DNA from: Candidatus Methanoperedens sp.
Lineage (GTDB): Archaea > Halobacteriota > Methanosarcinia > Methanosarcinales > Methanoperedenaceae
Length of the DNA: 32,000 nt
Direction of reading: 5' to 3'
NCBI GenBank assembly: GCA_041494705.1
Contig: JBGQBI010000003.1
Span: 296,637 to 328,636, forward strand
Each line of letters begins with the position of its first letter. Position 1 is the stretch's first letter. The position numbers and the translations under genes are program-made. Positions 1,312 to 31,895 of the stretch are shown in pieces. The notes below the pieces were generated by a model that had not been told where the DNA came from, made no database searches, and worked only from the letters and a program-made list of their open reading frames with translations.

Positions 1312-2304
1312 TTGGCGAATTTAGAAAAAATAATTGAACAATTAATAAGTAAACCCGAGTCATATACTATCCAGAGGGACTCGCTTGATACATATATCAA
1401 GGAACATCATATGTGTCTCAATCCTTTCGCCGACAAGATTATTGATGATAAGATGTTCATCAATAAAGATGAAATTGTCTGCAACAGGATAATGCGGGCT
1501 GCCAGGCACAACCAGTCAAGCCTGATGATATTAATGGGCCCTACAGGTTCAGGGAAGAGCGAAAATGCCGACTTTATCGTAAGAAACCTGCCTCCCGAGT
1601 TTATTTTCTGGTATAACCAGATATATGGCCAGAGCTCGATACAGCTTGCTACATCGATAATCGGCGACCTTGACCCCAACTATCTGGCCCAATTATCCAC
1701 AGCAGACAGGGAAATGATTCTTGACATATATGATGATGTCTTAAAGGCGCTTGTTAAAAATAACAAGAAATTATTCTGCATATTCGACCAGGGGGAGCAT
1801 TTCTCAAAAGATGCTTTTGAACTTATCACCAATTCCACCAATCCTTATTATGCAGCAAACAGGGCGTTTACGGGTTTGATCCTCGCAGTTCCACGCTTTG
1901 AAAAACATATTGAAGAATGGACTGAAAGTCTTGATACAATGTTAAGAAGGGCTCTTATACGCGAATATACCAGGCCATTTACAGTGTCCCAGCGACTTGA
2001 ATATATAATACGCGCCCTTGTTTCCAGTAAGAAAAAGAGCTATCATGAATTAATGAAAAAACGCGATTTTGACCCTTTCGATGAAGATGCCATTTTATAC
2101 TTGATTGAAAAGAGTGAAGGACATCCAAGCACTCTTAACAGTCTATGCTATATCTCACTGGAACTTGTGTCTGCAATTTCACCAGACGCAGTAATAACAG
2201 AATCTATTGTTCAGGAAGCCTGGACTAAATTCCCGAATAAAACAATCCATCACGACGCTATAAACTGGTATAAAGAGAAAGGTCTATACCAGAAGCAAGA
2301 CTAA
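1312..2304 (+). CDS. P-loop NTPase, ExeA/GspA-like (AAA_22-type) ATPase
   Basis: Walker A is MGPTGSGKS. N-terminal LNPF...MF, a Walker B-like FCIFDQGEH, and the C-terminal EGHPSTLNSLC motif resemble the ExeA pattern (G-x-PR-x-x-N-x-L-C). The ORF-track start is TTG at 1312. An ATG at 1411 (MCLNPF...), preceded by AAGGAA, is an alternative start. Confidence 0.55.
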   Translation: MANLEKIIEQLISKPESYTIQRDSLDTYIKEHHMCLNPFADKIIDDKMFINKDEIVCNRIMRAARHNQSSLMILMGPTGSGKSENADFIVRNLPPEFIFWYNQIYGQSSIQLATSIIGDLDPNYLAQLSTADREMILDIYDDVLKALVKNNKKLFCIFDQGEHFSKDAFELITNSTNPYYAANRAFTGLILAVPRFEKHIEEWTESLDTMLRRALIREYTRPFTVSQRLEYIIRALVSSKKKSYHELMKKRDFDPFDEDAILYLIEKSEGHPSTLNSLCYISLELVSAISPDAVITESIVQEAWTKFPNKTIHHDAINWYKEKGLYQKQD

Positions 2305-2307
2305 AAG

Positions 2308-3579: not shown

Positions 3580-5318
3580 AGAGACTCATTATCTTAATCA
3601 TTTTTTTATTATTGTGGCCAGCTGTTTGCGCTGCTGAAAAAATAAATGGTCTGGATGTTGAGTGGGAATCCGGGACATCATATACCCTTAGCTGGACGAA
3701 TCCCACAGTCACCGTAGGAGATTATGTCATACGGGTTTTTGATTTTGACTGGAAGGGAAATGCGGTCATATCAGTTACAAGAAAAGGCGTGACCCAGAAC
3801 GGAATAATATCCAACCAGGGTGAAAACTTAGTTATGGATTTTACAGGAAATAGCACCACTTTCCAGGGAATCCTGATTGGTATGGGAGATGTTTCAAATT
3901 ATGTATCCATCCCTGGAACCATCCCAATCAACGTTGGAACATTCCCATGCTGCCCTCAGGCCACTATCAGTATTGCGGTCTCAAAAGATCTTACCCAAAA
4001 AAAACCGGTATTGGAGCTTGATATGGAAACGAACTGGGATGGAGGTCTGGGTAGAATATCAGATATGAATTTTGAAATCAAAAATACTGGCGACGCAGAT
4101 CTTTCCGGGGGCAATGTTACGATAAATTTAGACGGCTTAATACCCGCCAATGATAGGCAATTATCAGATAATGCATTAACATATAACCCCAAAAAAGGTA
4201 TAGTAACCAAAGGATGGAGCACTCCGCTTTTAAGGAATAATTCGGTCTATTTTAATATATCGGTAAAGTCACCAGTCCCGTCGAATAAAACATCCTTTAC
4301 GATTTCAGGTCAGAGTTATTTTAAGGATTCAAGCGGTAATCTGTATTCTGCAACGAAGTCTGAAACCGTCTCCCTTACCCCTACTTTCAGTTTAACGAAA
4401 TCAATAAGCCAGTATTCGATTCTTGGCGATAGGTCGTATGGGGATATCGATAAATTCTTCGCTCTTAGTAATGTGAGTGTTGTAAATTTAAATGTTGCGA
4501 ACACGCAAAGCTATTCATTAAAATCGGTGACTCTCACGGATACCGTGATGAATGATTTTGATTTAATAAACGATTCCATAGCCCCAACAAAAGATTTTAA
4601 ATTAATAAATAATAATACATTGCAGTGGGTTTTTGACCTTAATTCAAGTGAATCGAGGGAATTTAAATACCATTTAACCGCCCGGAAAATAGGAAGTTTT
4701 ACAGCGCCTGGTGCGGTGGCGCAGTGGAATGCATGGGGAGTTACCGGAAAAGCTTCTTCAAACATGCCTGCAACACGGGTATATGGTGTTTATGTGGTAG
4801 TGACCAGGAAAACTGATAAAACCAATCCAAAGTTGAACGAAAGCCTGAATGTAACAACTACATTGGAGAATATAGGCGACTTTCCTGCGGGATTTAATGC
4901 AACGGATATTCTTCCGAAAAATACCACATTCATTTCAGGAACCACGACCTTCAGCGGTTATTTGTACCCCAAGTCTGAACCTGTTTCTTTCAATTATAAT
5001 TTGTCCGTTGATAAACCGGGTGATCTGGAATTTCCATCACCTGTAATCACTTTCTGGAAAAAAGATTATGATGGGTCATTTGGTGTAATACCCGGCAATA
5101 AAATCACGGTCATCGGCCCCTCTCTCTTAGCAGTGGCTGCCGCGGCTTCAGGCCAGGCCAATATCTCCCAGGCTCCCACAGCCACCCCCATCCCCAAGAG
5201 TTTGCTTGATATCATAGATGAGAAGGTTCCCTGGCTTGAGGGCGCTGTCCCGATAATCATGTTAATTGTTGCTATTATTTTAATGCTTATGCTGCATGTT
5301 ATTAACAGGGAATCATGA
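3576..5318 (+). CDS. Secreted, C-terminally membrane-anchored cell-surface protein with DUF11/CARDB-like repeat domains and many N-glycosylation sequons
   Basis: A TTG at 3576 gives M-KRLIILIIFLLLWPAVCAA|EK, a textbook signal peptide, and overlaps the upstream TGA (TTGA). Repeated beta-domain signatures are present (FEIKNTGDADLSGGNVTINLDG, LNVANTQSYSLKSVTLTD, TTTLENIGDFPAGFNATDILPKNTTFISG). A Thr/Pro/Ala linker and a C-terminal TM helix (VPIIMLIVAIILMLMLHV) follow. Confidence 0.65.
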   Translation: MKRLIILIIFLLLWPAVCAAEKINGLDVEWESGTSYTLSWTNPTVTVGDYVIRVFDFDWKGNAVISVTRKGVTQNGIISNQGENLVMDFTGNSTTFQGILIGMGDVSNYVSIPGTIPINVGTFPCCPQATISIAVSKDLTQKKPVLELDMETNWDGGLGRISDMNFEIKNTGDADLSGGNVTINLDGLIPANDRQLSDNALTYNPKKGIVTKGWSTPLLRNNSVYFNISVKSPVPSNKTSFTISGQSYFKDSSGNLYSATKSETVSLTPTFSLTKSISQYSILGDRSYGDIDKFFALSNVSVVNLNVANTQSYSLKSVTLTDTVMNDFDLINDSIAPTKDFKLINNNTLQWVFDLNSSESREFKYHLTARKIGSFTAPGAVAQWNAWGVTGKASSNMPATRVYGVYVVVTRKTDKTNPKLNESLNVTTTLENIGDFPAGFNATDILPKNTTFISGTTTFSGYLYPKSEPVSFNYNLSVDKPGDLEFPSPVITFWKKDYDGSFGVIPGNKITVIGPSLLAVAAAASGQANISQAPTATPIPKSLLDIIDEKVPWLEGAVPIIMLIVAIILMLMLHVINRES

Positions 5319-5950
5319 AAGCTGAGAATATTATCGGCTTAGCGATTCTGGTGGTATTCGGACTTATTGTGGGCATACTATTCTCTGTTTATTCGCATGA
5401 TAAGCAACTCAATATTAAATCTGGTAAAACGCCAGGATACCCCAATAACACGCAAATCAATGGCGACAAACAGGTCGAGGGTAACACCCAGGTTTCGAAC
5501 TTTACAGAGCTGGTTTCAAATGGAAAAAACATTTGCGAAGGATGCCATCTTTCGGGAAAGAAAATCTATCCCCAGGCATACCAGGTAAAACAGCACGTCG
5601 AAGGGGGCGCATATTGCCTCGAATGCCATACGATTGACCATAAAGTGCATCCCATGAGCCCGAAAGATAAAAACGTGACCTGTGAAAGCTGTCATGGGGC
5701 AGCATCCCCACAGGTGCCAACTTTTCGCAACGGTACAATATCATGCGCAAATTGCCATGATTACCCTGACCCGCTAAAGCCAAGCAATGGTAATCTTATT
5801 GTGATACACCGCGAGAGAAATGTGGATTGTATAAAATGCCATCTGGATTCAACTGCCTCTTGTCTTAAGTGCCATAATGAAATTAAAAGCGATGATAAAT
5901 GGACAAAAAGGCTTAATCATTTCAATACGATTGTGAAGACAGCCCAATGA
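5315..5950 (+). CDS. Membrane-anchored hexahaem c-type cytochrome
   Basis: Six CxxCH motifs occur in 211 aa: CEGCH, CLECH, CESCH, CANCH, CIKCH, CLKCH. There is an N-terminal TM anchor (IIGLAILVVFGLIVGILFSVY). The ATG overlaps the upstream stop (ATGA at 5315-5318). Confidence 0.85.
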   Translation: MKAENIIGLAILVVFGLIVGILFSVYSHDKQLNIKSGKTPGYPNNTQINGDKQVEGNTQVSNFTELVSNGKNICEGCHLSGKKIYPQAYQVKQHVEGGAYCLECHTIDHKVHPMSPKDKNVTCESCHGAASPQVPTFRNGTISCANCHDYPDPLKPSNGNLIVIHRERNVDCIKCHLDSTASCLKCHNEIKSDDKWTKRLNHFNTIVKTAQ

Positions 5951-11956: not shown

Positions 11957-12616
11957 TTATAAGCTGCATCTTCGAACAACCCCAAAGCCACGGGAAACAG
12001 ATTTGCCAATACCAAGATATTCAGGTATCATGAAGTTTATCTGAAATTCGCCCTTAAAACCAATGAGAGGAATGCCTTTTGAATAAACTTTTATGGGTGA
12101 TACTTTTGTTCTTACTTTAATTTGGTTAAGAACGACGTATCCGAGAGACTTGGAAATTGAGAGAAGGTTTCCTGCAAGGATTTGATGTAAAAGTTTCACT
12201 TTGTTCTTTGGATCGAATTTAATATAGGAATCATAATTTATCTCATTCAAAGCTATCCAGGGAACAATAAACATATACTGCATAAAGCTATCAGAACAAC
12301 CAAATTCCTGGCTTTTTTCAATTATCTGACGTTCTTCAATTTTGTAAGTCATCTTACCAAGGATAATATCTTCGATATCCCAGGAAATTTCTTTTAAAAT
12401 CTCAGCCCCTTCATCAATTCCAAGTATTACCGGCGTACCTTCAATTATCTTGTATTGCACTTTCGGATATTGGTAAGAGTTCTTACCATTTTCTGCATGC
12501 TGGTGCAGAATAGGATAGTCTTTGAACCTGTTTCCGATGAAGCCCCGCAGTTTCTCAGGGCTTTCAGTTACAGGGTCTTTGGTTTTCAGTATTAGGGTTA
12601 GGGTCTGGATGTCCAT
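11957..12616 (-). CDS. cas6: Cas6-family CRISPR endoribonuclease (paralogue associated with the type III-like module)
   Basis: The C-terminal glycine-rich RAMP loop is IPEYLGIGKSVSRGFGVV. The N-terminal part (LRGFIGNRF...ILHQH...YQYPKVQYK) is collinear with the second cas6 at 22966-23658. Confidence 0.7.
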   Translation of the reverse strand: MDIQTLTLILKTKDPVTESPEKLRGFIGNRFKDYPILHQHAENGKNSYQYPKVQYKIIEGTPVILGIDEGAEILKEISWDIEDIILGKMTYKIEERQIIEKSQEFGCSDSFMQYMFIVPWIALNEINYDSYIKFDPKNKVKLLHQILAGNLLSISKSLGYVVLNQIKVRTKVSPIKVYSKGIPLIGFKGEFQINFMIPEYLGIGKSVSRGFGVVRRCSL

Positions 12617-12680: not shown

Positions 12681-13478
12681 TCATATTTGTTTTATTTTTA
12701 TATCTACCTTTCCAAATCCCTTTGACTTGTAACCACCAATGGTTTTTATGCTTGCAAAGCGGTCAATAATAAACTCCTTGATGATCGGATCTATTGACCG
12801 TGGATGTCCTGCAAGCCATGCATCTCCTCCAGTATAATCTTTAAGATTTCTCGCTTTTCCAAGTTCTCTATCTCTAACAGTGTCTTTAATTATAACTGTC
12901 AAGGTACCCATGAATTTAGCACCGTCAGGCACCAACTGGTATGGTCTATTTGTCCCCTGCTTTACGGTCTGGATTGCCCTATCAATATTTGCCGAATATA
13001 GTTCATTAACCGTTGTTTTGGCATACAAAAACGGCACTTTTACAAATCCCTCAAGTCCGTTTGCGCCAAGGAAATAGCAAACCGGACAAATTTCGTGCAA
13101 TGCTTTGCATTTTCTATCGCAGGGATAGTGACAGCCATCTCCTTTGATATCCCCTCCGGTCGGCTGGAATAAGTTATAGAATCTATATAACCCATTCACC
13201 ACAAGCTGATTTTCATCAGGAGAAAGCTTTGTTGAAGGTATGCAAGGCTGAAGATTTTTATCCGTCCATTTTTTTTCAGCCCTATTAAAATAGGTATCAA
13301 TCAGGTATCTCTCAATCTCACAGCGGTAAGCGCCTTTGAGGGTAGAACCCGGAACAACCGCCTTATTGCCCACAAGGGCTATCGGGTTATCTATTCCCGA
13401 TAAGGGACTTGCTATCCCCCCGATTCGAATAGGTTCTAAAGTTGTCAATTCAATTTCAAATTCTTTCTGTTCAATCAT
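12681..13478 (-). CDS. cas7: Cas7-like RAMP backbone subunit (Csm3/Cmr4 family) with a Cys-rich insertion
   Basis: IGGIASPLSGIDNPIALVGNKAVVPGSTLKGAYR matches the Csm3/Cmr4 N-terminal pattern, including the Asp used for target RNA cleavage. The C-terminal G-rich loop is IGGYKSKGFGKV. A Cys cluster (CHYPCDRKCKALHEICPVCYFLG) sits in the middle. Confidence 0.7.
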   Translation of the reverse strand: MIEQKEFEIELTTLEPIRIGGIASPLSGIDNPIALVGNKAVVPGSTLKGAYRCEIERYLIDTYFNRAEKKWTDKNLQPCIPSTKLSPDENQLVVNGLYRFYNLFQPTGGDIKGDGCHYPCDRKCKALHEICPVCYFLGANGLEGFVKVPFLYAKTTVNELYSANIDRAIQTVKQGTNRPYQLVPDGAKFMGTLTVIIKDTVRDRELGKARNLKDYTGGDAWLAGHPRSIDPIIKEFIIDRFASIKTIGGYKSKGFGKVDIKIKQI

Positions 13479-13482
13479 TTTC

Positions 13483-14502
13483 TCAAACCTCCGTTATACT
13501 TATCAAACTTTTTATTATAAACCGTGCAGTTTTTCTGTCTATAGATGGATATTTTTCAATGATTCCAAGTACATGAAGAAGCGTTTCTGCCTGTTGCCTC
13601 GTATCCCTTCTGTTCTTTCTCTCCAACAAAAATGTCCTGGTCATGGTTAACCCCTCCCTTTCGAGAATATCCCCAACTGTATTCTGAAACTTATTTGATA
13701 AATACCCAATTTTTACATTTTTCTTTATTTCTTCAATGACCTTTGCCGCAATATCTTCCGTTTCTGTATTCATTGTTTTGTCACTCTTTGTTTTTAGTAA
13801 AAATCCTGGCGCTTCAACCATGCTGCCTTCAAACAATGAAAGCACATACTTACCTTCTGTTTCGGATGTCGGTTCAAAAAGATATCCGAAATTTGCGTTT
13901 TTCACCTTTTTAATTCCAAAAACATCATGCAAAAATCTGGTTGGCTTACCTTCTTCAAGTACATTTTTAATATCCTCTTTTCCAGCTTCAAAATCCGCAT
14001 CATTAAGCTTAAAAAGTGGCAATCTGGTATTCAATTCACCCTCTCTGGAATCGGCACATGGATCAGTTCCCTTAAAATTCAATTTGCACTCCCCAAAACC
14101 TTTGGATTTCAATCCACCCATCCAGAAACTTATCTCTCCTTTCTGGGACCATATCTCTTTCACATCTTCATTTTCTTTAAGATACACCTCGCCTTCCACA
14201 TTGTAAAGATATTCGGTATATATAGGAATAATACTTGTTTCAATTGACCTGTTTCGTGGAGAATAAGTGAGTGTCTTAATGTGATTCTCCCTGAACTCAG
14301 TCTCATCCTTAAAAAGAAAATGTCCACATGCATGGATTTGCTTTGACTTACCGGCATTTTTACTGTTTCCAAATTTCGCCTGAAGCGCACCTGTAATCTG
14401 GCTATAAGGAATTGTTGTAATAACAGGGCGATACTGTCCCTTTTTAAACCTTTCTCCCAGGATGAGCAGATCAGAACTAAAACCAAACTTAAGGATGTTC
14501 AT
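13483..14502 (-). CDS. cas5: Cas5-like RAMP (Csm4/Cmr3-like) with a ~95-aa predicted-helical C-terminal extension
   Basis: The N-terminal TIPYSQITGALQAKFG is a Cas5-type signature, and the G-rich loop is MGGLKSKGFGECKL. The C-terminal region (TEDIAAKVIEEIKKNV...RQQAETLLHVLGIIEKYPSIDRKTARFIIKSL) is helix-like. Its start overlaps the Cas10-like stop by 4 nt. Confidence 0.55.
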   Translation of the reverse strand: MNILKFGFSSDLLILGERFKKGQYRPVITTIPYSQITGALQAKFGNSKNAGKSKQIHACGHFLFKDETEFRENHIKTLTYSPRNRSIETSIIPIYTEYLYNVEGEVYLKENEDVKEIWSQKGEISFWMGGLKSKGFGECKLNFKGTDPCADSREGELNTRLPLFKLNDADFEAGKEDIKNVLEEGKPTRFLHDVFGIKKVKNANFGYLFEPTSETEGKYVLSLFEGSMVEAPGFLLKTKSDKTMNTETEDIAAKVIEEIKKNVKIGYLSNKFQNTVGDILEREGLTMTRTFLLERKNRRDTRQQAETLLHVLGIIEKYPSIDRKTARFIIKSLISITEV

Positions 14503-16520
14503 TCTTCATCCCCCATGATTTTTGCATATGTCAAAATTGTTTTAAAATCAATCTTTTTATCCTGCGCTCTGATTGGCTCAAAAGCATTGTAAACTCTATA
14601 ATCTCCTCTATCATAAACAAGAACCTTTGCCAATTTCTCTGAGGTCTCCGATATCTTGGCAAGCTTATGAAGCTGCTTGGAGGCAGGTATTTTGAAATCT
14701 TTTATTAAGACTTTGAGCTGGTTTAAAGTGAGGTGCATCCCACCCCTTCCAATCAAAATAACATTCACATCATTTTTTGGGTTCTCAAGGATTTTCCAGT
14801 GCCTAAAAAAGGCAAATTTTACATTGGATACTGAAATTGAGAGGGTAACTGGAGATTTTTGTTCCTTTAGCTCGGGGAAGCACTCCATAAATATGTTACT
14901 ATATATTTCCAGGATATCTTTTATCTGGCTTATTTTTTCGAGTTTGATACAAAGAAAATCATTAAGGATAGGCTGGAAGTTCTCGGTTTTAAAATATTCT
15001 TCTAAATTTTTGTTGAAATTTTTGAGGAATAAATCATAATCTTTCTGGAATTCAGCAAGAACGGAAAAGCGTAGTTCAATTTTTTCAGAGATTGCACCTT
15101 TAAGGGTATTTTGGATATATTTGTCAAGTAGTGTTTGTAATGTTTCTGCCAGAGATTCAATATCCAGATTAATTTTGATCCAAGCAATTTTGGAATTAGG
15201 TTCTTCTTTATACCATTGTTCAATTTTAGGAGCAGGTGGCTCTTTTCTAAAATCTCTAATAGAATAGCAACTTTCACAGAGGTGTTCCGTTATTCCGCTT
15301 TCTTCATCGTTCCAATCTTTTTCTGCTGGATGCATTTGACAGATTTCACAAAGCTTATTGATTGTGATTGATAGATTACCATAATAATTGCTTATAGGAA
15401 AACGGCTCTCAAACTCCAAACGGTCTTTATCTAACTCTTTTAATTTGTTTGTTTTTAAGTTGATATCCGGTATTTTTTCAAGGTTTACCCGTTGTTTTTT
15501 GATGCTATTTTCAAAACGTTGAGATTCTTGTTCTTTAATTATTTTCGGTGTAAGATTTGCATATTCCAGGATCGTATTTGCTCCTTCGATATTAACAATG
15601 AAACCTCTTTCTATAAAGGGTTTAACAAGTTGTGTAATTGATTCATCTGGAGGGAGTAACGCCAAGAATTGAGTAGAAGTATTAAGGATAATATTATCAT
15701 TTTGTGAAAATTTAGATATTTCATTATTTAAAATTTGAAAAATATGTAAATCCTTAACTCTAACAGGATAATGTGGAAATTTAATCTGAACCCTTATGAT
15801 ATTTAAATTCCACTTTTTTCTGGCGTCATTTGGACTGTTCGCAGTTTTACCTCCAAAGGAGAGAGTACCTTTAGAGACTTCTTTGGTATTTGCTTCGAAG
15901 AATCTAAACAGCTTTCCAACAAGGTTTGAATGAGTAAAAAGACTGGTAATATTCTTAGGTGGTTCAAAATCTTCTGGTCTCTCCAGCATATTTTTATTAA
16001 AATTCTGGAAATATTGCTCTTTATCTTGAACAACATTTGTAAAAGCAACCAATGATTTAAAATCATTCTCAGAAGAAAATAGTTTAATTTCTTCGTTGTA
16101 AGGCTTCCACAACTTTAAGAGAGTCCTGTTTTCAAATTTAATATCAATTTTTCCAATCTCTTTATTTGTCAAAGTTCTTGAAATAGATGATGCCATATAA
16201 TCAGCTAAACATTGCAAAAAAACTGGATACTCTTTCTTCTTTTCTGCATATTCTGAGATCAAATCCTTTGTTGATTTATCTGGAGGATCATGGTGATATC
16301 TAATATTTTTGTATGTAAGGGTTTCAGTAAAATTTACTCCAAATAACCTCAGATAGTGTAATTCTTCACCTGTTTCCTTATTTATGCATAAAAAATTGTG
16401 GTTCCAATCTATTTTTTCAATAGGAATACCAAGTTTTTGCGAAATAAATTGCCTAATCCAATAACTATCCACAAGCTTCCCAATATCATGAAGTTCTGGA
16501 ATAATTTTATCCTCAGACAT
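14499..16520 (-). CDS. cas10: Small Cas10-like type III large subunit with an N-terminal HD domain and no GGDD cyclase motif
   Basis: HD motifs are ELHDIGK, RYHHD and LADYMASSISR. The Cas10 Palm1-type SLFTHSNLVGKLF is present, as is the treble-clef zinc finger CEICQ-x23-CESC. The Palm2-like IAWIKINLDIESL has N-x-D instead of D-x-D. No GGDD or GGDE occurs anywhere in the 673 aa. Confidence 0.75.
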   Translation of the reverse strand: MSEDKIIPELHDIGKLVDSYWIRQFISQKLGIPIEKIDWNHNFLCINKETGEELHYLRLFGVNFTETLTYKNIRYHHDPPDKSTKDLISEYAEKKKEYPVFLQCLADYMASSISRTLTNKEIGKIDIKFENRTLLKLWKPYNEEIKLFSSENDFKSLVAFTNVVQDKEQYFQNFNKNMLERPEDFEPPKNITSLFTHSNLVGKLFRFFEANTKEVSKGTLSFGGKTANSPNDARKKWNLNIIRVQIKFPHYPVRVKDLHIFQILNNEISKFSQNDNIILNTSTQFLALLPPDESITQLVKPFIERGFIVNIEGANTILEYANLTPKIIKEQESQRFENSIKKQRVNLEKIPDINLKTNKLKELDKDRLEFESRFPISNYYGNLSITINKLCEICQMHPAEKDWNDEESGITEHLCESCYSIRDFRKEPPAPKIEQWYKEEPNSKIAWIKINLDIESLAETLQTLLDKYIQNTLKGAISEKIELRFSVLAEFQKDYDLFLKNFNKNLEEYFKTENFQPILNDFLCIKLEKISQIKDILEIYSNIFMECFPELKEQKSPVTLSISVSNVKFAFFRHWKILENPKNDVNVILIGRGGMHLTLNQLKVLIKDFKIPASKQLHKLAKISETSEKLAKVLVYDRGDYRVYNAFEPIRAQDKKIDFKTILTYAKIMGDEE

Positions 16521-19015
16521 TTACTCACCCTTTAAGGAAAAATTGCTACAATTAATGACTTAACTCGTACTTATTCTATATAACAGTTCTCATAAATTAA
16601 TGTTTCAGTTTGTCTTTTTAAAAACTAGTTTTTTCTGAGAACCAATTGAATAAAGCGATTGTAGATTACAATTTACATAATAATGTTTCAATCCTTGTTT
16701 TAGTGGATGTGCCTCTTGAATTAAAAATCTATTCATGGATGGTGAAGAAGGGTTAATGTTTCAATCCTTGTTTTAGTGGATGTGCCTCTTGAATGCTGAA
16801 TGGAAACGGCTGGGGTATCGCAAAAGCGGGAGTAGAGTTTCAATCCTTGTTTTAGTGGATGTGCCTCTTGAATGCAACAGCTTATAGCAGAATATGACAA
16901 TAAACATAAGTTTCAATCCTTGTTTTAGTGGATGTGCCTCTTGAATATAACTGTATGTCCTCGATGTCATTCGTGGGCGAGGAGTTTCAATCCTTGTTTT
17001 AGTGGATGTGCCTCTTGAATATTATCAAGAGTTCCTGAAAACGCAAAATATCTGGAAGTTTCAATCCTTGTTTTAGTGGATGTGCCTCTTGAATGTCAGG
17101 GAACGGGAAGAACGAAAACGGGAAGTTCTGGTTTCAATCCTTGTTTTAGTGGATGTGCCTCTTGAATGAGAAAGAGATTGATGATGATATTTTCGCTATT
17201 GGTTTCAATCCTTGTTTTAGTGGATGTGCCTCTTGAATTCTTGATTGCCCGGATGGATCTATTAATTGAACAGAAGTTTCAATCCTTGTTTTAGTGGATG
17301 TGCCTCTTGAATTGCAAAAATCTGGTTTGAATTATTCGGCATTACTACGGTTTCAATCCTTGTTTTAGTGGATGTGCCTCTTGAATGAAGAGTTTTGTAC
17401 AATGCAGCAAGGGCGTAATGAAGTTTCAATCCTTGTTTTAGTGGATGTGCCTCTTGAATCTTTCAGTTCATCTGTTTTTTCAACTGCTTTGATGTTAGTT
17501 TCAATCCTTGTTTTAGTGGATGTGCCTCTTGAATCCCTCTTCACGGAAGGAAAGGCAGGAGAACTACAGTTTCAATCCTTGTTTTAGTGGATGTGCCTCT
17601 TGAATAGTTGAAAAACCCGTGCCCGCTTGCGAGAATGTCAGTTTCAATCCTTGTTTTAGTGGATGTGCCTCTTGAATATGACAGCTCCAACAATTCCGGA
17701 TATCTTTGTATGTTTCAATCCTTGTTTTAGTGGATGTGCCTCTTGAATAATTATCGAAAAAACCTTATACGCCGACGAAACAGGTTTCAATCCTTGTTTT
17801 AGTGGATGTGCCTCTTGAATTATGCTCTGGTGATATCATGGTCTCGAGAGCATATGGTTTCAATCCTTGTTTTAGTGGATGTGCCTCTTGAATGTCTTTC
17901 TGTATTCCATCAAGTCCACGATCCTGAGTTTCAATCCTTGTTTTAGTGGATGTGCCTCTTGAATCTGATCCGTTTTTTTTATTCCCTGGAAGAACACCAG
18001 GGTTTCAATCCTTGTTTTAGTGGATGTGCCTCTTGAATTTTCTATGGTGTGTGCGGTCAGGCCCCTGACCTGACAAGTTTCAATCCTTGTTTTAGTGGAT
18101 GTGCCTCTTGAATCGGGTATGCGGTTTCATAATCACGCCTGAACCTTAGTTTCAATCCTTGTTTTAGTGGATGTGCCTCTTGAATGCCTCGAATCCGCGC
18201 AAGGCGTCGGATATCGTGGGTTTCAATCCTTGTTTTAGTGGATGTGCCTCTTGAATTCTTTTTCAGCAACAGGAGGAACACATGCCACAGAGTTTCAATC
18301 CTTGTTTTAGTGGATGTGCCTCTTGAATCCGCCCATATAGCGCAAAACAACCCGCCCATCTGGGTTTCAATCCTTGTTTTAGTGGATGTGCCTCTTGAAT
18401 TCAAGCGTCTGCCGCTCACGGACTATGAGAAGGCAGTTTCAATCCTTGTTTTAGTGGATGTGCCTCTTGAATTATATTGCTTTTTTGGTGCGACCACAAG
18501 AGATATAGTTTCAATCCTTGTTTTAGTGGATGTGCCTCTTGAATAATATTTTAGAAAAGCATGTCGGCAGGCATATCAAGTTTCAATCCTTGTTTTAGTG
18601 GATGTGCCTCTTGAATACAATCAAGAAGTCATGTACATTCTCAGTCTACTAGGTTTCAATCCTTGTTTTAGTGGATGTGCCTCTTGAATGAAAAGCAGGA
18701 GGAGTGGAAGCCTATATATATATAAGTTTCAATCCTTGTTTTAGTGGATGTGCCTCTTGAATCCGAGCGCAGCGGAAATTATCTCATTTGAAATAATAGT
18801 TTCAATCCTTGTTTTAGTGGATGTGCCTCTTGAATAATCAGGTGCAGGAGCGCCGTAATCGAATCCTTCATGTTTCAATCCTTGTTTTAGTGGATGTGCC
18901 TCTTGAATTACACCTTTTTCCCCTTTTGAATTGGTACATTTTTGTTTCAATCCTTGTTTTAGTGGATGTGCCTCTTGAATAGGCTCGATGATAAGAACTC
19001 TCCATGCGAAAGCTG

Positions 19016-19052
19016 GTTTCAATCCTAGTTTTCGTGGATGTGCCTCTTGAAT
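19016..19052 (-). repeat. Variant CRISPR repeat (repeat 33 from the left) with two substitutions
   Basis: GTTTCAATCCTaGTTTTcGTGGATGTGCCTCTTGAAT: plus-strand position 12 is T>A and position 18 is A>C. Confidence 0.95.
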
Positions 19053-19086
19053 ATCCAAAGTCCGAACATAACTTTCCAAGCTTACA

Positions 19087-19123
19087 GTTTAAATCCTTGT
19101 TTTAGTGGATGTGCCTCTTGAAT
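19087..19123 (-). repeat. Variant CRISPR repeat (repeat 34 from the left) with one substitution inside the 8-nt handle
   Basis: GTTTaAATCC...: plus-strand position 5 is C>A, so the sense-strand handle becomes ATTTAAAC instead of ATTGAAAC. Confidence 0.95.
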
Positions 19124-20789
19124 ATAGCGGGTATATTTATATAGTGTCTAACCAATGTTGTTTCAATCCTTGTTTTAGTGGATGTGCCTCTTGAATGTCC
19201 GAAGCGGATCAAGCGCGTGGACTGTGGCTTCAGTTTCAATCCTTGTTTTAGTGGATGTGCCTCTTGAATTTTCTCAATGGAAGTGCGTACAAGAACAATG
19301 TGACGTTTCAATCCTTGTTTTAGTGGATGTGCCTCTTGAATCCTTGAGGGTGAGTAGCGAGGCTACCGCATATTATAGTTTCAATCCTTGTTTTAGTGGA
19401 TGTGCCTCTTGAATTCAGGTACATCCCGCCGAAGCTGCACCTGTTCCGCGGTTTCAATCCTTGTTTTAGTGGATGTGCCTCTTGAATCTCCGGCTGCCGG
19501 GCAAAGCGGCCATTGTTCAAAGTTTCAATCCTTGTTTTAGTGGATGTGCCTCTTGAATCTGGTTCATGAAGGGATACCCGATTTCAAGGAGCTTAGTTTC
19601 AATCCTTGTTTTAGTGGATGTGCCTCTTGAATGTACATTTATGAATTGGAAGTAATCGTTAAACTTGTTTCAATCCTTGTTTTAGTGGATGTGCCTCTTG
19701 AATACGGCGGAGATAGCGTCTTCGGAGTACAGTACGAGGTTTCAATCCTTGTTTTAGTGGATGTGCCTCTTGAATCCCATATGATTTTTTCAGACAGTTT
19801 CAGCGCAGGTGTTTCAATCCTTGTTTTAGTGGATGTGCCTCTTGAATTCCTCAATCGAGGAAGTCAGCCGGGCAGAAATGAGTTTCAATCCTTGTTTTAG
19901 TGGATGTGCCTCTTGAATGAAGCGGATCAAGCGCGTGGACTGCGGTTTCGTGAAGTTTCAATCCTTGTTTTAGTGGATGTGCCTCTTGAATGCCCGGCAG
20001 CGCGGGAGCCGCAAGCGCGAACAACAGTTTCAATCCTTGTTTTAGTGGATGTGCCTCTTGAATTTTGTCGTGAAGAAATGGCGGAAGCAATGTGGAGGTT
20101 TCAATCCTTGTTTTAGTGGATGTGCCTCTTGAATTACGCTCATAAATCCTCAGGAGGGATTGATTCAAAGTTTCAATCCTTGTTTTAGTGGATGTGCCTC
20201 TTGAATGAAGAGGCGACCGCGCGGTTGAAGGAGTTCATGAAGTTTCAATCCTTGTTTTAGTGGATGTGCCTCTTGAATACAAGGAATATCAATGTTGATT
20301 CCACAGAGAAAAAAAGTTTCAATCCTTGTTTTAGTGGATGTGCCTCTTGAATCAGGACGGGGTTTGTAGTGTGCAGGCCCTCGAATACCAGGGTTTCAAT
20401 CCTTGTTTTAGTGGATGTGCCTCTTGAATGCGCTGAACGCATACAAGGGAAACGGCTTTCTGGAGTTTCAATCCTTGTTTTAGTGGATGTGCCTCTTGAA
20501 TTTTTGGTACCATTCCTTATCCTAGGAACGAGAAAGTTTCAATCCTTGTTTTAGTGGATGTGCCTCTTGAATCATCTGCGATATGGTTGTTTGGTAATCA
20601 GACAAATGGTTTCAATCCTTGTTTTAGTGGATGTGCCTCTTGAATTGTGATCTCGCTTCCGGAACTCGCCTCATCACCGAGTTTCAATCCTTGTTTTAGT
20701 GGATGTGCCTCTTGAATTCCAGGTTCCTATAGGATCGGTGTAGAGAATATTAGTTTCAATCCTTGTTTTAGTGGATGTGCCTCTTGAAT

Positions 20790-20897: not shown

Positions 20898-22770
<1,873 letters not shown>

Positions 22771-22965
22771 GTTTATTCCCCCTGAACGCTTTGCGATTTT
22801 TGCACCGCAGAGAACGCAAAGGACGCAAAGATTATGCTTTATATTGTCATGTTGTTTTCGTTTCTTAATATATTAACCGCAGATAAACGCAAAACTTTAT
22901 GAAAGTTTTATCAAACGAGGGGTATGCTTCGCATACCCCAACACTGCGTAAACCGAAGTTTCGGT
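22771..22965 (-). promoter_or_regulatory. Unusually long (195 nt) cas6-cas1 intergenic region with three hairpins, a TATA-like element and repeated ACCGCAGA-N-AACGCAAA motifs; probable terminator plus internal regulated promoter
   Basis: The hairpins are AAACCGAA-GT-TTCGGTTT (22950-22967), GGGGTATGC-TTC-GCATACCCC (22919-22939) and AAAACTTT-ATG-AAAGTTTT (22891-22909). The motif ACCGCAGAGAACGCAAA occurs at 22804-22820, followed by ACGCAAAG at 22823-22830, and ACCGCAGATAAACGCAAA occurs at 22876-22893. TTAATATATTAA is at 22865-22876. Confidence 0.35.
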
Positions 22966-23658
22966 TTATGAACGCAGATGCCTGATTGCATAAGGCTCCT
23001 CTTTTGCCAGACCTTTAACAGCCCCGAAGCCTCTTGAAACTGATTTCCCGATGCCAAGATAATCAGGTATGAGGAAGTTGGTACAGAATCCTCCGATGAA
23101 GGTCATCACGTTTACGTCTTTTAACCTGCTTTTCCTGATATTTACATCAACATCGCATTTTATCTTTTCGGGTACCTGATAATCTAAAGATTTTGACACG
23201 GAAAGAAGGTTCCCAATGAGCGTTTTTCTAAGGAATTCATTTCTATCCTCATGACTCTTAAGACCATAGTACTTCATGTAATTCTCCTGGTTGAGCGCAA
23301 GCCATGGCGTGGCGAACTCGTAGGAATGTATCTTTTCCGAAATCCCAAACTCCTGGTTCCTGACAGAGATGCCCTTCTCTACGATCTCATAAACCTCCTC
23401 GCCAAGTTTTATTTCATCGTATTTATCATAAACCAGTTTTAAAACGTCGGCGCCGTCATTGATTCCGATGACCATGGGCGCGCCGTCTATCATCTTGTAC
23501 TGCACGAGGGGATAGCGATAGATGAGCCTGTCGGCGCTGTGCTGGTGGAGGAGGGAGTATTCGTTGAATTGGGTGGCGAAGAAGCCGCGAAGCTCTGCTG
23601 AGGTGCCCTGGATGGGGCGGGTGGAAGCGAGGGTGAGGGTGAAGGTTTTGAGGTTCAT
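22966..23658 (-). CDS. cas6: Cas6-family CRISPR endoribonuclease (paralogue linked to the adaptation and type I-B genes)
   Basis: The C-terminal G-rich loop is IPDYLGIGKSVSRGFGAV. It is collinear with the cas6 at 11957-12616 (LRGFFATQF...LLHQH...YRYPLVQYK). I prefer the ATG at 23658 (MNLKTF...); the ORF track uses an upstream GTG at 23670. Confidence 0.75.
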   Translation of the reverse strand: MNLKTFTLTLASTRPIQGTSAELRGFFATQFNEYSLLHQHSADRLIYRYPLVQYKMIDGAPMVIGINDGADVLKLVYDKYDEIKLGEEVYEIVEKGISVRNQEFGISEKIHSYEFATPWLALNQENYMKYYGLKSHEDRNEFLRKTLIGNLLSVSKSLDYQVPEKIKCDVDVNIRKSRLKDVNVMTFIGGFCTNFLIPDYLGIGKSVSRGFGAVKGLAKEEPYAIRHLRS

Positions 23659-23746
23659 ATTTTTATGCACTATGTTTTATCACTTTGGTCTGCTACTGCA
23701 TTGCGGCGCTGGGGTTGCGACCCCAGACCCCGGTGAGGCGCCGCCG
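23659..23746 (-). repeat. Copy 1 of a duplicated junction segment (AT-rich part plus a GC-rich part containing GGCGCCGCCG), immediately upstream of cas6
   Basis: ATTTTTATGCACTATGTTTTATCACTTTGGTCTGCTACTGCAT... aligns with 24779-24840 (TTTTTTTCATGCACTATAGTTATCA...CTTTGGTGTATG...TGCAT). Both are followed by GC-rich sequence containing GGCGCCGCCG (23737-23746 and 24852-24861). Confidence 0.5.
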
Positions 23747-23855
23747 ATGGCGGGGTTTTCTGTAAGCAGATTGTTACATGTTAACCAGTTTTGAAATTCT
23801 AGCGCTGCTATTTTTGATGCTTATTAATTTGTGAACATTTTCACTTATGAGGTCT

Positions 23856-24287
23856 TCAATCTTTAATTTCTATGTACTTGTCAATGGTCTCTATGAATTC
23901 ATAAAAATCCTTCAATTCTATATTTAGATAAGAATATGCCCTTGAATCATCTATATGTCCATATTGATGCACAAGCAAATTTCGAAATCCAACAAGTTCT
24001 TCAAGCCTGGTGGAAAGTGACCCTGTTATCACTCCATTTTCAGCAAGTTTCCTGATACTATCTTTACTATCGGTCGGTATTCCAAATCCTTTTTCAGATA
24101 TGATCAAATTACAGATGTCAAGTAAATTTTCACTTGCCAGTTGGAAAGCGCGTTCACACGCTCTTTTCCTCAGACCGCTGTTCAGGTATTCCTCTTTTTC
24201 TTCTGGAAGGTATTCCTCAAGTTCTCTCAGGTATTTCTCCAGTTCATCCATCTTTTCTAATATTCTATCTTTATCCAAGAATATCAT
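23856..24287 (-). CDS. hepT: HEPN-domain (DUF86 / HepT-type) toxin
   Basis: The Rx4H motif appears as GFRNLLVHQY. The 143-aa helical protein has a start that overlaps the stop of the upstream nucleotidyltransferase gene by 4 nt. Confidence 0.85.
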   Translation of the reverse strand: MIFLDKDRILEKMDELEKYLRELEEYLPEEKEEYLNSGLRKRACERAFQLASENLLDICNLIISEKGFGIPTDSKDSIRKLAENGVITGSLSTRLEELVGFRNLLVHQYGHIDDSRAYSYLNIELKDFYEFIETIDKYIEIKD

Positions 24288-24733
24288 CCCAATCTGGCTC
24301 TAACACGTTCCATAACATGCTTATGATAGTCCTTAGTGAGCCTTTTATATCGTTCATATTCTATATCATTTATCTTTGAAAGTGTTAATATGTAATACAT
24401 GTCCTGCGTGTAAAGCACCCTGCCTTCGAGAAATACCCTTTTGCGTATATAAACAGGCAGTTCATCAATGAATGAAATATCGATATTCTCAGGAACTGAA
24501 TTGTTAATGGATATCCTCTCTTTCAGGGGAATTTCAATATCATGTTTTGGTATGATACATATATCTATGTCGCTCTTTTCTTTTTCAGTTCCTCTGGCTT
24601 TTGAACCAAAAAGGATGATGGAATGAACAAGCCTGGACCTCTTGAGTTTTGAGATTGCCTCGTTTATGTCTTCGTTTGATATATTTTGGTCGTTCCTTTT
24701 TGTCACAGGGACAATTTGATTTTTCATTATCAT
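24284..24733 (-). CDS. mntA: Minimal nucleotidyltransferase (MNT / MntA-type) antitoxin
   Basis: It carries the GS-x-AR-G ... D-x-D signature (ILFGSKARGTEKEKSDIDICII) and is paired with the HEPN gene. Confidence 0.85.
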   Translation of the reverse strand: MIMKNQIVPVTKRNDQNISNEDINEAISKLKRSRLVHSIILFGSKARGTEKEKSDIDICIIPKHDIEIPLKERISINNSVPENIDISFIDELPVYIRKRVFLEGRVLYTQDMYYILTLSKINDIEYERYKRLTKDYHKHVMERVRARLG

Positions 24734-24778
24734 TCTCTCTGCTGTATAATTATTTAAAGACTGGCTCTTCTACATCTA

Positions 24779-24861
24779 TTTTTTTCATGCACTATAGTTA
24801 TCATTTTTGTTAACTTTGGTGTATGTAATTATTGCATGTCTCAGGAAATCCGGCGCCGCCG
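24779..24861 (-). repeat. Copy 2 of the duplicated junction segment, immediately upstream of mntA
   Basis: See copy 1 (23659-23746). The orientation is direct, and the two copies bracket the mntA-hepT pair. Confidence 0.5.
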
Positions 24862-24962
24862 CAAAGTCCCTGCGCGCCGTCTGTGATGCCGCGCCGCGCA
24901 TGGGTGTGGAGGATGGGGGGGGCGGGGATGCAGGCGGAGGCGAGGGTGAGGTTGAGGTTCAT
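24810..24962 (-). pseudogene. Decayed 5' fragment of a cas6 gene (50-codon remnant ORF) starting 10 nt after the cas3 stop
   Basis: The minus strand reads ATGAACCTCAA-CCTCACCCTCGCCTCCGCC..., against cas6 (23658 downward) ATGAACCTCAAaaccttcaCCCTCACCCTCGCTTCCACC.... The peptide MNLNLTLASACIPAPPIL...AQGLCGGAGF compares with Cas6 MNLKTFTLTLASTRPIQG...AELRGFFATQF. It ends after 50 codons, is far more GC-rich than its surroundings, and has no G-rich loop or rest of the fold. Confidence 0.55.
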
Positions 24963-24972
24963 GGTCCTAGTT

Positions 24973-27708
24973 TTAACAAATTAAATTTCCGCAGCCAGCT
25001 TTTTCTCTTTTAAATCCTGTTTTGCGATCGTAATAAGATTCCAATTCGTAATTATTGATAAAATTAAGTTCTCCGTCTTTAAAATCAGCGGCGTAATTCT
25101 TTGGGATACTGATCACATAATCATAAAATTGCTTTTTTATTTTTAAAAATTCTTTCCTTCGTTCAAGAGGATCTTTAATATCTCGGATTTCACAATATTT
25201 CTGTTTTACTTTTTTGGCATTATCATCATATACGTTTAACGTACCGTTCTCAACTTTCACAACGAATTCATTAGCTTTACTCCCATTGATAGTTAGTGTT
25301 ACTTTGGTTTTTTCAAAGTTAAGTGTTAGCGAAACATAATTATTTTCACTATACAATTTTATGGTTTTATTATCTTCAATTTTTTCTATTTTTGCTGTGT
25401 TTACACAGTCAATACCAAAATCCCGATTTAAGAGTTCTATGAGTTTTCCGTTGTGGTTTCCCGGAATTTCATCCCAGCTAAACAAAAACTCATCATCTAA
25501 CTCAACAAAAATGTCTATTTTATAAAAGTTGTCATCATCTATTAATTTGAAATCTGATATTGGTTTTCTCTTATTTCTATCAGGAGTTTTATCATAAAAA
25601 TATAAATCGTAAAGTGATTCAATAAGTTTTACTTCTGTTCCAGACTTTTCTTTTGCAGATTCAAAATACTTATTTATCAGCTCTAAAAAATCTATTTCGT
25701 AGAACTGAGAAGTGGTATTATCTTCATTATTAAATAAGTTATTAACTAAATGCAATAAAACAGGATCGTATATCTTTGTATATGAGGTTCCATTTTTCAA
25801 ATTCACTAAATGCATTTCTGCTTTATCAAATCGTTTATTTCTATTGCATCTTCCTGCGATCTGTATTATAGAATCTAACGGACCTCTATCACGATATACA
25901 CAATCACAGTCAATATCTACTCCCGCTTCAATTAGTTGTGTTGAAACAATTATGACCTTTTGATTGTTTTTTATCGCTTTTCTTGCGTATTCTATTCTTT
26001 GCCTTCTTTCTCTTGGAGTAATATTTGTTGATAAATAGCATTTTTTGAAAGGCAAACCTGATTTTTGGATTTTATCAGTTATTAAATTATAAAACTCTAA
26101 TGATGAACCAATTGTATTAAAAACAAACAGATATGAGTTTTTAGACCAATCATTCAACTCGTTACAGAATTCTATTACTTTTTTCTCGTTGGAATCTATC
26201 TTCAAAATTACACGGTTTAAATCTTCCGTCTTAAAGTAACTTTCATAATTATCTACAAGTTCTTTGTACTCTCCCTCCTCAAAAATCAATGGCTTAGTAG
26301 CGGTCATTAAAATAATTGTACAATTAAAATATTCAGTCATCCCAATTAAAACTCTTCTCACTAAATTCCAGTATTCTATAGGAATATTCTGTGCTTCATC
26401 TAAAATAATTATTGAATTTACAATGTTGTGAAACTTTTTTAAGCTCCTATTCTTGTATCCTATCAAGCTATAAAATAATTGAATAAAAGTCGTAACGATA
26501 ACTTCAGATTCCCAAGATTCAATTAAGGCGAGGCTTTCATCCAAATCTTCTTCCTTATCCATATTTTGCGTTTTATAAAAGATTTCTGAAAGATGATGAT
26601 GCTTTAAAAGATATGGACTCTCATTATTTTTGAAATCGCTAATTTGACTTAAAACTTTATCGAACACATCATAGTTTTGGTCTATAATACTTGTAAAAGG
26701 TAGTGAGTAGATAATCCTTGGTTCAAATTTTAAATTGAGATCATTTTTTAAGATTTTCCTTAGCTTCAAAGCAGCAGCGAAAGAAGTTAAGGTTTTACCT
26801 GTTCCCGTCGGCGCTGTCAGCGTAAAGATTTTCTGGCTTGCATTTTTAGGATCAGATATATTCGTTATTACTGAGGCTTGAATTTGAGCTCTAATGATGT
26901 TAATATTGCTTTTGTTTTCTTCTTTGATTTCAGGTTTGTTTAAATGTATTTCAACGAGATTATCTAAGAGTTCTTTTCTTTCTATTTTTCTGACACTGCC
27001 GGCGTGTTTTTTATCTGAATCTATCAAAATAGAATAAAAAAGCTGAACAAGAAAATAATATATTAGGTTTTTATTATCCGTCTCCTCAAAGGAGTGAAAG
27101 ATTTTAACTAATTCTTTAATTTGTGGTTTAATATCATCTGAATATTTTATTTCACCTTTGTATTTCTCGATATTAGAAAATATTTTTTTAGCGGATAGAT
27201 TGATTTTCTTAATTAATAACTCGTATTCATTAATTATTGAATCATAATTAATCCAAATATCCATTAATTGTCTGGATATATTTTTAAATCCGCCATCAAA
27301 TAATTTTTCTGAATCTATATCATTATTAATATCGTCCAAATCCAGATGGTGGCGCTTAACAACAAAATAAGCAATCAATGGAAGAAATTTATAAGGTATT
27401 TCATTTTCAAGTTTTTCTGTTTTTATATATTCATTCACCGCTTCAAATACAAACAATGCAGAAATTAGCCCATGATTTGTTACAGGATCGTTTTTATCAC
27501 TTAGTCCTTTCAGCTTTTCCTGGAAAAATGTTGTATATTTTCCAAAATCATGCGAAATACCTATGATATAAGATACATCTGCAAAAGCATTTATATTAAA
27601 TCCATCAAAATTTTTTAATTCAATTATTTCTTTACTTCTATCTCCCACAGACTGCAAGTGATCTTTTAAAAGAATCTTTTTGGGGTCTAAGTGAGAATAA
27701 AACTCCAT
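24973..27708 (-). CDS. cas3: Cas3 HD nuclease / superfamily 2 helicase fusion with an extended C-terminal region
   Basis: HD motifs are HLQSV, ISHDFGKYTTFF and VKRHHLD. The helicase motifs are TAPTGTGKT (I), IILDEAQ (II), MTAT (III) and QIAGRCNR (VI). At 911 aa it is longer than most Cas3 proteins I know. Confidence 0.9.
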   Translation of the reverse strand: MEFYSHLDPKKILLKDHLQSVGDRSKEIIELKNFDGFNINAFADVSYIIGISHDFGKYTTFFQEKLKGLSDKNDPVTNHGLISALFVFEAVNEYIKTEKLENEIPYKFLPLIAYFVVKRHHLDLDDINNDIDSEKLFDGGFKNISRQLMDIWINYDSIINEYELLIKKINLSAKKIFSNIEKYKGEIKYSDDIKPQIKELVKIFHSFEETDNKNLIYYFLVQLFYSILIDSDKKHAGSVRKIERKELLDNLVEIHLNKPEIKEENKSNINIIRAQIQASVITNISDPKNASQKIFTLTAPTGTGKTLTSFAAALKLRKILKNDLNLKFEPRIIYSLPFTSIIDQNYDVFDKVLSQISDFKNNESPYLLKHHHLSEIFYKTQNMDKEEDLDESLALIESWESEVIVTTFIQLFYSLIGYKNRSLKKFHNIVNSIIILDEAQNIPIEYWNLVRRVLIGMTEYFNCTIILMTATKPLIFEEGEYKELVDNYESYFKTEDLNRVILKIDSNEKKVIEFCNELNDWSKNSYLFVFNTIGSSLEFYNLITDKIQKSGLPFKKCYLSTNITPRERRQRIEYARKAIKNNQKVIIVSTQLIEAGVDIDCDCVYRDRGPLDSIIQIAGRCNRNKRFDKAEMHLVNLKNGTSYTKIYDPVLLHLVNNLFNNEDNTTSQFYEIDFLELINKYFESAKEKSGTEVKLIESLYDLYFYDKTPDRNKRKPISDFKLIDDDNFYKIDIFVELDDEFLFSWDEIPGNHNGKLIELLNRDFGIDCVNTAKIEKIEDNKTIKLYSENNYVSLTLNFEKTKVTLTINGSKANEFVVKVENGTLNVYDDNAKKVKQKYCEIRDIKDPLERRKEFLKIKKQFYDYVISIPKNYAADFKDGELNFINNYELESYYDRKTGFKREKAGCGNLIC

Positions 27709-27714
27709 ATTTCC

Positions 27715-28542: not shown

Positions 28543-28544
28543 TT

Positions 28545-29618: not shown

Positions 29619-29619
29619 T

Positions 29620-31895
<2,276 letters not shown>

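Follow-up and report, generated by a model that had tools for sequence, protein, structure and literature searches.

A probable subtype III-F Cas10 from Candidatus Methanoperedens with conserved HD nuclease residues and a degenerate cyclase site

We analyzed a stretch of 32,000 nucleotides (nt) from Candidatus Methanoperedens sp. (GenBank assembly GCA_041494705.1, contig JBGQBI010000003.1, positions 296,637 to 328,636), hereafter called the window, to which all coordinates given without a locus name refer. At its center is a protein of 673 amino acids (aa) encoded at 14499-16520 on the minus strand. The protein is very probably the Cas10 subunit of a type III-F effector module, composed of cas10, a fused cas5-cas11, cas7, and cas6b, which lies beside a CRISPR array that would be shared with a type I-B system. 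Sequence comparisons and a structural model together point to a Cas10 that keeps its HD domain, has a degenerate cyclase site, and would work free of signalling.

Identity and family of the large protein

The open reading frame (ORF) comprises 673 codons with an ATG start on the minus strand, and the plus-strand translation contains many stops. The existence of homologues and the gene order around cas10, which is kept in 40 or more loci, indicate that the ORF is a real gene rather than a chance reading frame. The original prediction, made from the sequence alone, had placed a Cas10-like protein at this position, leaving the strand unstated, and the ORF, the profile match, and the fold comparison all agree with it. 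The PADLOC model Cas10a/Cas10f matched the protein with E = 5e-96 over profile positions 2-584 of 585, and PADLOC was the only resource to recognize it; scans against Pfam and NCBIfam gave zero matches even at E ≤ 0.1. An AlphaFold2 model calculated from a 53-sequence alignment reached a mean predicted local distance difference test score (pLDDT) of 88.5 and a predicted template modelling score of 0.89. When this model was compared with the PDB by Foldseek, the top 50 matches were all Csm1/Cas10 chains of type III-A complexes (best E = 2e-11). The template modelling score was ~0.5, which is what a protein made of several mobile domains would be expected to give. Searching the PDB with the sequence profile of the family yielded marginal matches only (8bmw_K, 1.7e-4; 8wfx_A, 0.47).

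A word-indexed search found 67 homologues of the protein, and when 1.84 billion proteins were searched exhaustively with the family profile, 323 representative clusters were found at E ≤ 1e-3, of which 228 were still recovered at E ≤ 1e-30. Thus, the family is small and sharply bounded and stays separate from canonical Cas10. The identical sequence is already public, entered as a "hypothetical protein" in the data of NCBI, JGI, and Logan, and the nearest named relatives are metagenome-assembled genomes of Candidatus Methanoperedens. Family members measure ~576-766 aa, which puts the 673-aa protein in the middle of the range, and Cmr2 of Thermus thermophilus, which is devoid of an HD domain, has 584 aa. 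The protein is therefore not among the smallest Cas10-like proteins, as had been assumed initially. Taken together, the profile match and the modelled fold support its assignment as the Cas10 large subunit of subtype III-F. Its features are listed below.

14499-16520, minus strand: cas10, subtype III-F (673 aa), with HD, Palm1, zinc finger, degenerate Palm2, and short helical D4 (ORF, profile match, AlphaFold2, Foldseek)
16146-16520, minus strand: HD nuclease domain, aa 1-125, with H11-D12...K15, H41, H75-H76, D107, and S114-R115 (conservation, Csm1 match)
15561-16028, minus strand: Palm1 region, aa ~165-320, with the general Cas10 motif PED..P..NITSL.TH and R254/D257 (hhalign, conservation)
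15267-15350, minus strand: treble-clef zinc finger, C391-x2-C394 ... C415-x2-C418 (family-invariant, Csm1 alignment)
15156-15170, minus strand: D-x-D remnant on Palm2 strand 1, N451-L452-D453-I454-E455 (end of model strand 444-452)
14958-14969, minus strand: lost GGDD position, I518-L519-N520-D521, at the turn of hairpin 515-519/522-527 (model secondary structure)
14502-14726, minus strand: short C-terminal helical domain, equivalent of D4, aa 599-673 (six short helices, pLDDT 63-87)

Conservation of the HD domain, Palm1, and the zinc finger

In the AlphaFold2 model, a helical HD domain (aa 1-125) is followed by Palm1, the zinc finger, Palm2, and a six-helix C-terminal domain (aa 599-670). The HD motifs had been described as intact, and all three strings quoted in support were found, namely ELHDIGK at aa 9, RYHHD at aa 74, and LADYMASSISR at aa 105. 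The residues concerned correspond one-to-one to invariant residues of Csm1: H11-D12, K15, H41, H75-H76, and D107 match H15-D16, K19, H38, H70-H71, and D94, respectively, and the LAD..AS motif aligned to the Csm1 family with an hhalign probability of 95.9%. Conservation was counted in 188 family members of at least 550 aa aligned to the family profile, the set used for all family percentages given here. H11, D12, K15, D107, R115, H197, R254, D257, and the four zinc-finger cysteines are 96-100% conserved, H41 and H76 ~85%, so that the catalytic residues of the HD domain range overall from 85 to 100%.

Palm1 and the zinc finger (aa 192-433) aligned to residues 212-434 of a 31-member Csm1 alignment with 87% probability, the alignment ending before Palm2; hhalign comparisons in which the family was set against one Csm1 or Cmr2 sequence at a time were uninformative. 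In the Csm1 profile alignment, NITSLFTHS falls opposite VSLYDHLRL, and the zinc-finger cysteines align with the CxxC...CxxC of Csm1. The Palm1 motif PED..P..NITSL.TH, 97-100% conserved in the family, also aligns to the III-D Cas10 8bmw_K. Conservation of this degree in ~190 members, which come from many phyla, indicates that strong purifying selection acts on the residues of the HD domain, the zinc finger, and Palm1.

Degeneration of the cyclase site in Palm2

The two places assigned in the original prediction to the cyclase motifs, IKINLDIESL at aa 448 for D-x-D and PILNDFLCIK at aa 517 for GGDD, occur as quoted. Palm2 of the model consists of strand 444-452, helices 454-472 and 485-510, hairpin 515-519/522-527, helix 532-547, and strand 558-566. 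This order is identical to that of Csm1, in which the zinc finger is followed by strand 1 ending in the invariant D-x-D, by helices, the GGDD hairpin, a further helix, and the T-x-S-x-G strand; the last of these has its counterpart in the strand that reads P557-V-T-L-S-I-S. At the turn of the hairpin, where GGDD is expected, the protein has ILND. A string check of all 673 aa found neither GGDD nor GGDE nor GGD. As the stretch 516-523 is free of glycine and contains only one Asp and one Asn, GGDD is not restorable in any register. None of the accepted GGDD variants listed in the survey of 2024 (PMC11229360) occurs at this position. A Cas10 producing cyclic oligoadenylate (cOA) is expected to combine GGDD, or a variant with the second glycine, with an invariant D-x-D, a combination that is absent here.

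The same picture emerged from the relatives. In the 31-sequence Csm1 family, D550, D552, G627, G628, D629, and D630 are invariant. In the family studied here, by contrast, 185 of the 188 members have no glycine at positions 518/519, and an acid is present at 520 in 37% and at 521 in 72%. At the other half-site, position 453 is Asp in 63% and position 455 is Asp or Glu in 51%, with mostly Ser, Asn, or Thr at 451. The presence of an acid at 453 shows no association with that of an acid at 521 (2 × 2 table of 94, 33, 41, and 20; Fisher p = 0.39). Judged from the aligned sequences, this is the pattern of a Palm2 site freed of catalytic constraint.

Because Palm2 is degenerate, with ILND in place of GGDD and NLDIE in place of D-x-D, the complex should make no cOA. 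The loss of the motifs and the family pattern agree with the original prediction that the effector cannot make such molecules, although from sequence and model we can infer a Cas10 devoid of cOA synthesis only as an expectation. The absence of CARF genes, the other part of that prediction, was borne out: among the ORFs of at least 100 aa in the 32-kb window, Pfam, NCBIfam, and PADLOC gave no match to CARF, SAVED, or any other cOA sensor.

Several points weigh against this interpretation. The proposed loss of both metal-binding motifs, with D-x-D turned into N-x-D, is correct in that no acidic pair is conserved across the 188 relatives, but one aspartate is left in each half-site, D453 on strand 1 and D521 in the hairpin. 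In class III cyclases and GGDEF enzymes, the metal site is formed by one acid from each of these two elements. Moreover, in 20 of the 188 relatives (e.g., P0007 and P0008, with DLD and ILDDF), these positions hold four acids. The equivalence of the Palm2 residues was derived from the order of secondary-structure elements and from weak profile alignments, not from a three-dimensional superposition, and the alignment may be off by a few residues. An hhalign comparison confined to Palm2 gave probabilities of 0.2-1.6% and placed the hairpin differently from the model topology. The membership in III-F, whose type example is Pseudothermotoga lettingae Tlet_0097-0100, was derived from profile matches. 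Finally, the literature searched contained no experimental study of any III-F system. The hhalign register that puts GGDD opposite K529-Q532 was not used, since these residues lie at the start of model helix 532-547.

The surviving aspartates could also form a cryptic site, in which D453 and D521 bind metal and Palm2 either makes a non-canonical nucleotide product or serves as an allosteric nucleotide sensor controlling the HD nuclease. Positions 453 (Asp) and 521 (Asp or Glu) are the best-conserved remnants, both acids are present in this Cas10, the Palm topology of the model should place them side by side, and the relatives with four acids would fit such a site. Their conservation of 63-72%, however, is far below the 96-100% of the catalytic residues in the same proteins and below the invariant Csm1 positions, and the two acids co-occur no more often than expected. 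In addition, both glycines are absent in 185 of the 188 members, no cOA-sensing effector was found in the window, and a recombination breakpoint in cas10 (see below) falls between the half-sites. We therefore regard a cryptic site as improbable and retain the interpretation of a degenerate cyclase.

The Cas5-Cas11 fusion and Cas7

The module continues downstream of cas10 with the following genes.

13483-14502, minus strand: cas5-cas11 fusion (339 aa), with the repeat-associated mysterious protein (RAMP) core of Cas5 at aa 1-238 and a Cas11f helical bundle at aa ~247-338, window 13495-13746 (PADLOC, AlphaFold2, Foldseek)
12681-13478, minus strand: cas7, Csm3-like (265 aa), with the putative catalytic Asp D30 at 13389-13391 (PADLOC Cas7_IIIf, E = 4e-59)
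11957-12616, minus strand: cas6b of the III-F module, 219 aa (Pfam Cas6b_N and Cas6b_C, PADLOC Cas6b)

The stop codon of cas10 overlaps the start of cas5-cas11, and every ORF of the III-F module is intact. In the 339-aa protein, PADLOC identified Cas5_IIIf at aa 3-238 (E = 7e-41) and Cas11f at aa 253-336 (E = 2e-16). In its AlphaFold2 model (pLDDT 80.8), which Foldseek matched to Cmr3, Csm4, and Cas5, the RAMP core occupies aa 1-232 and is followed by helices at 247-338. The D4 region of Cas10 itself comprises ~75 aa, about half of the D4 length of Csm1 in the Csm1 alignment. Thus, the Cas11-like D4 domain of about 85 aa that had been proposed is indeed short, but the recognizable Cas11 is carried at the C-terminus of the adjoining Cas5 protein. 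Cas5 (~200 aa) and Cas11 (~90-120 aa) are encoded separately in most III-F relatives (L005, L006, L007, L009, L012, L048, and L054). They are fused in L001, L002, L004, and L010 and in about 25 of 119 Cas5 homologues, the fusion being limited to a clade that consists mostly of Methanoperedens, apart from a few cases further afield. Such a fusion would hold Cas11 at one copy per complex.

The GIDNP sequence of Cas7, which includes D30, aligns with DLDNP, the catalytic Asp motif of T. thermophilus Csm3. Since D30 is kept, RNA cleavage is plausible. Immunity had been proposed to rely on the HD DNase and on RNA cleavage by Cas7; the residues for both are present, while the activities themselves are a projection from these residues. 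At aa ~115-135, Cas7 also contains a Cys-rich insertion (CHYPCDRKCKALHEICPVC) that resembles a zinc-binding motif.

A second III-F sub-group was found in L003 (10731-11348 and 11341-12198), L011, and L015-L042. It has a longer Cas11f gene of ~190-205 aa (PADLOC PDLC01223) between cas5 and cas7, and in its Cas7 the catalytic Asp motif is replaced by KKAP, which suggests that this sub-group has lost RNA cleavage as well. III-H was considered for L003-type loci because their Cas7 lacks the Asp and a longer gene separates cas5 from cas7. This gene matched the long Cas11f profile, and the other proteins matched III-F profiles (tested for L003 and L005), so that both sub-groups belong to III-F.

For the Cas10 of the window, too, a different Cas10-like lineage was considered, that is, III-H, the Cas10d of type I-D, or the large subunit of type IV-C. 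Pfam and NCBIfam are silent on the protein, and the name of the matching PADLOC model is ambiguous. III-H is a distant relative of III-F in which the Cas7 aspartates are not conserved and a diverged Cas11 replaces the Cas10 C-terminus (PMC12669027). It shares with our locus the presence of HD, an inactivated cyclase, the absence of cOA effectors, a reduced architecture, and archaeal hosts, which are related to those seen here. In our locus, however, Cas7 has kept D30, and the Cas5 protein includes a Cas11f domain. Cas5, Cas11, and Cas7 all match III-F-specific profiles strongly; Cas7 is Csm3-like and not Csc2 or Csf2, and the Cas3 of the window belongs to a separate I-B operon. On the profile evidence, types IV-C and I-D were rejected, and any lineage other than III-F appears very unlikely.

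The array and the neighboring type I-B system

Upstream of cas10 on the minus strand lie the array and a second CRISPR-Cas system.

16685-20789, minus strand: CRISPR array, 57 repeats of 37 nt and 56 spacers (repeat end ATTGAAAC on the minus strand)
20898-31812, minus strand: complete type I-B system with cas8b, cas7b, cas5b, cas3, an MNT/HepT pair, cas6b, cas1, cas2, and cas4 (PADLOC and Pfam)

The order of transcription on the minus strand is I-B system, array, cas10, cas5-cas11, cas7, and cas6b, which places the array between the I-B system (upstream) and the III-F module (immediately downstream). Fifty-five of the 57 repeats are identical, including both terminal ones; the internal repeats at 19016 and 19087 carry two mismatches and one mismatch, respectively. 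The sequence ATTGAAAC is the usual 8-nt Cas6 tag. Its position at the minus-strand end of the repeats indicates an array oriented like both cas operons. The same kind of repeat is also found upstream of cas10 in L001, L002, L004, and L003. Each module has its own Cas6b paralogue, the III-F cas6b being 43% identical to that of the I-B system (22966-23670).

According to the mechanism that we propose, Cas6b would cut the precursor of the CRISPR RNA (crRNA), leaving an 8-nt 5' tag, and Cas10, Cas5-Cas11, and several Cas7 subunits would assemble on the crRNA. The complex would bind complementary invader transcripts, and Cas7 would cut the bound RNA by means of D30. Binding of the target RNA would also switch on the N-terminal HD domain of Cas10, leading to the degradation of nearby single-stranded DNA. 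The III-F module and the I-B system would share the array, with cas1, cas2, and cas4 supplied by the latter. All of the biochemical activities, the stoichiometry of the complex, and the use of the adjoining array are what we infer from the locus.

Further observations concern the surroundings of the module. A toxin-antitoxin pair, made up of a HepT-like RNase of 143 aa and an MNT nucleotidyltransferase of 149 aa, is inserted in the I-B operon between cas3 and cas6b (23856-24733, minus strand). At 3480-5950, a 612-aa protein with a BatD/DUF11-like domain stands next to a multihaem cytochrome c of 211 aa (c7/c3-type) that comes after it, which fits a host from Methanoperedens or resembling anaerobic methanotrophic archaea. 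The flanking trp genes, archaetidylinositol-phosphate synthase, and multihaem cytochrome suggest an archaeal host.

Recombination in cas10

Comparison with related loci revealed a further feature of cas10.

15068-15077, minus strand: recombination breakpoint in cas10 at codon ~482-485, inside Palm2 (blastn, protein identity profile)

Compared with the Methanoperedens locus L002, Cas5-Cas11 is 91%, Cas7 94%, and Cas6b 95% identical, whereas Cas10 reaches only 48%. The identity of Cas10 to its L002 counterpart is 15-55% at first and rises to 70-92% near residue 480. At the DNA level, blastn aligned the two loci in one unbroken block of 3.1 kb with 90.7% identity, extending from 15068 to 11955 in the window (L002 1966-5094). 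The same breakpoint, at 15077, was obtained with L004, in which the block is 84.8% identical (L004 9597-12730). Upstream of the breakpoint, that is, in the part of cas10 coding for HD, Palm1, the zinc finger, and the start of Palm2, blastn detected no DNA similarity to L002 or L004. L001, on the contrary, is ~80% identical throughout, without a jump at the breakpoint. The identity profiles mark cas10 as a recombinant, mosaic gene, whose 3' third travels with cas5-cas11, cas7, and cas6b and whose breakpoint separates the two remnants of the cyclase site. In L001 (uncultured archaeon LFW-280_3_2, the closest GTDB relative), cas10 (1814-3811) is split into ORFs of 582 aa and 82 aa at ~residue 594, by either an assembly frameshift or stop or a real split just before D4.

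One could imagine that the D453/D521 pocket binds a metal or nucleotide and acts as an allosteric HD switch, or makes a product other than cOA, and that, in addition, a cassette of HD, Palm1, and zinc finger at the N-terminus is swapped among III-F operons that are otherwise ~91% identical at the DNA level, in an arms race, for example, with anti-CRISPRs. We consider this combined scenario a long shot.

The mosaic gene also bears on the question whether the module is decaying or has been repurposed, for instance, as a crRNA-guided RNA binder that has given up nuclease immunity and acts as a regulator. One of the three type III activities would be lost, the minor filament is reduced, with D4 being short and only one Cas11 domain present, joined to Cas5, and cas10 is recombinant. 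Yet all ORFs are intact, with the stop of cas10 overlapping the next start; HD, zinc finger, and Palm1 are strongly conserved in ~190 members, and D30 of Cas7 is retained. An array with 56 spacers and 55 of 57 repeats identical likewise suggests an active locus. Decay or repurposing is thus hardly to be expected, and a functional III-F effector with a degenerate cyclase remains the preferred explanation.

Comparison with known type III systems

The 2020 classification of Makarova et al. reportedly defines III-F by the genes cas10, cas5, cas11, and one cas7, the HD domain being intact and the cyclase inactivated. Our locus has the same gene content, an intact HD, no cyclase motif, no CARF effectors, and matches to the III-F profiles. 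It differs in the fusion of Cas11 to the C-terminus of Cas5, in a cas6b of its own, and in the large array and I-B adaptation module beside it; most III-F loci have been reported without arrays, though with exceptions (Makarova et al., 2025, PMC12669027). The retention of HD and the absence of both cyclase and effectors in III-F were described in the survey published in 2024 (PMC11229360), and III-C and III-F are stated to "lack an active Cas10 cyclase" (PMC12409355). A review of 2020 noted that III-F remained uninvestigated (PMC7694759).

With Csm1 of type III-A (T. thermophilus TTHB147; PDB 6IFN, 6O7D, and 9G9E), the protein shares the domain order, the HD motifs, and the SL..H helix motif. 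The invariant GGDD and D-x-D of Csm1, however, are replaced by ILND and NLDIE, the protein is ~130 aa shorter with a D4 of about half the size, and none of the Pfam domains of Csm1 (PF22335, PF01966, and PF18211) was detected in it. III-C also has an inactivated cyclase and no known effectors, and half of its members keep the HD domain (PMC11229360). Unlike our locus with its single Csm3-like Cas7, it is Cmr-like, with several Cas7 paralogues and a Cmr5-type Cas11.

Significance

A Cas10 with HD and without cyclase is already known as a feature of III-F, a rare subtype, and the present case is a correct rediscovery of it in a new III-F member with a lineage-specific Cas5-Cas11 fusion. What is known of III-F is left unchanged, since surveys already describe the retained HD and the absence of cyclase and effectors. 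The locus presents, in an archaeal genome, a type III module that would have its crRNAs in common with a type I-B system. With three effector proteins, it could serve as a minimal model of a compact, signalling-free type III effector, for which its own Cas6b, the 56-spacer array, and the Cas5-Cas11 fusion are assets. Such a system would allow the activation of the Cas10 HD nuclease by target RNA to be studied free of cOA signalling.

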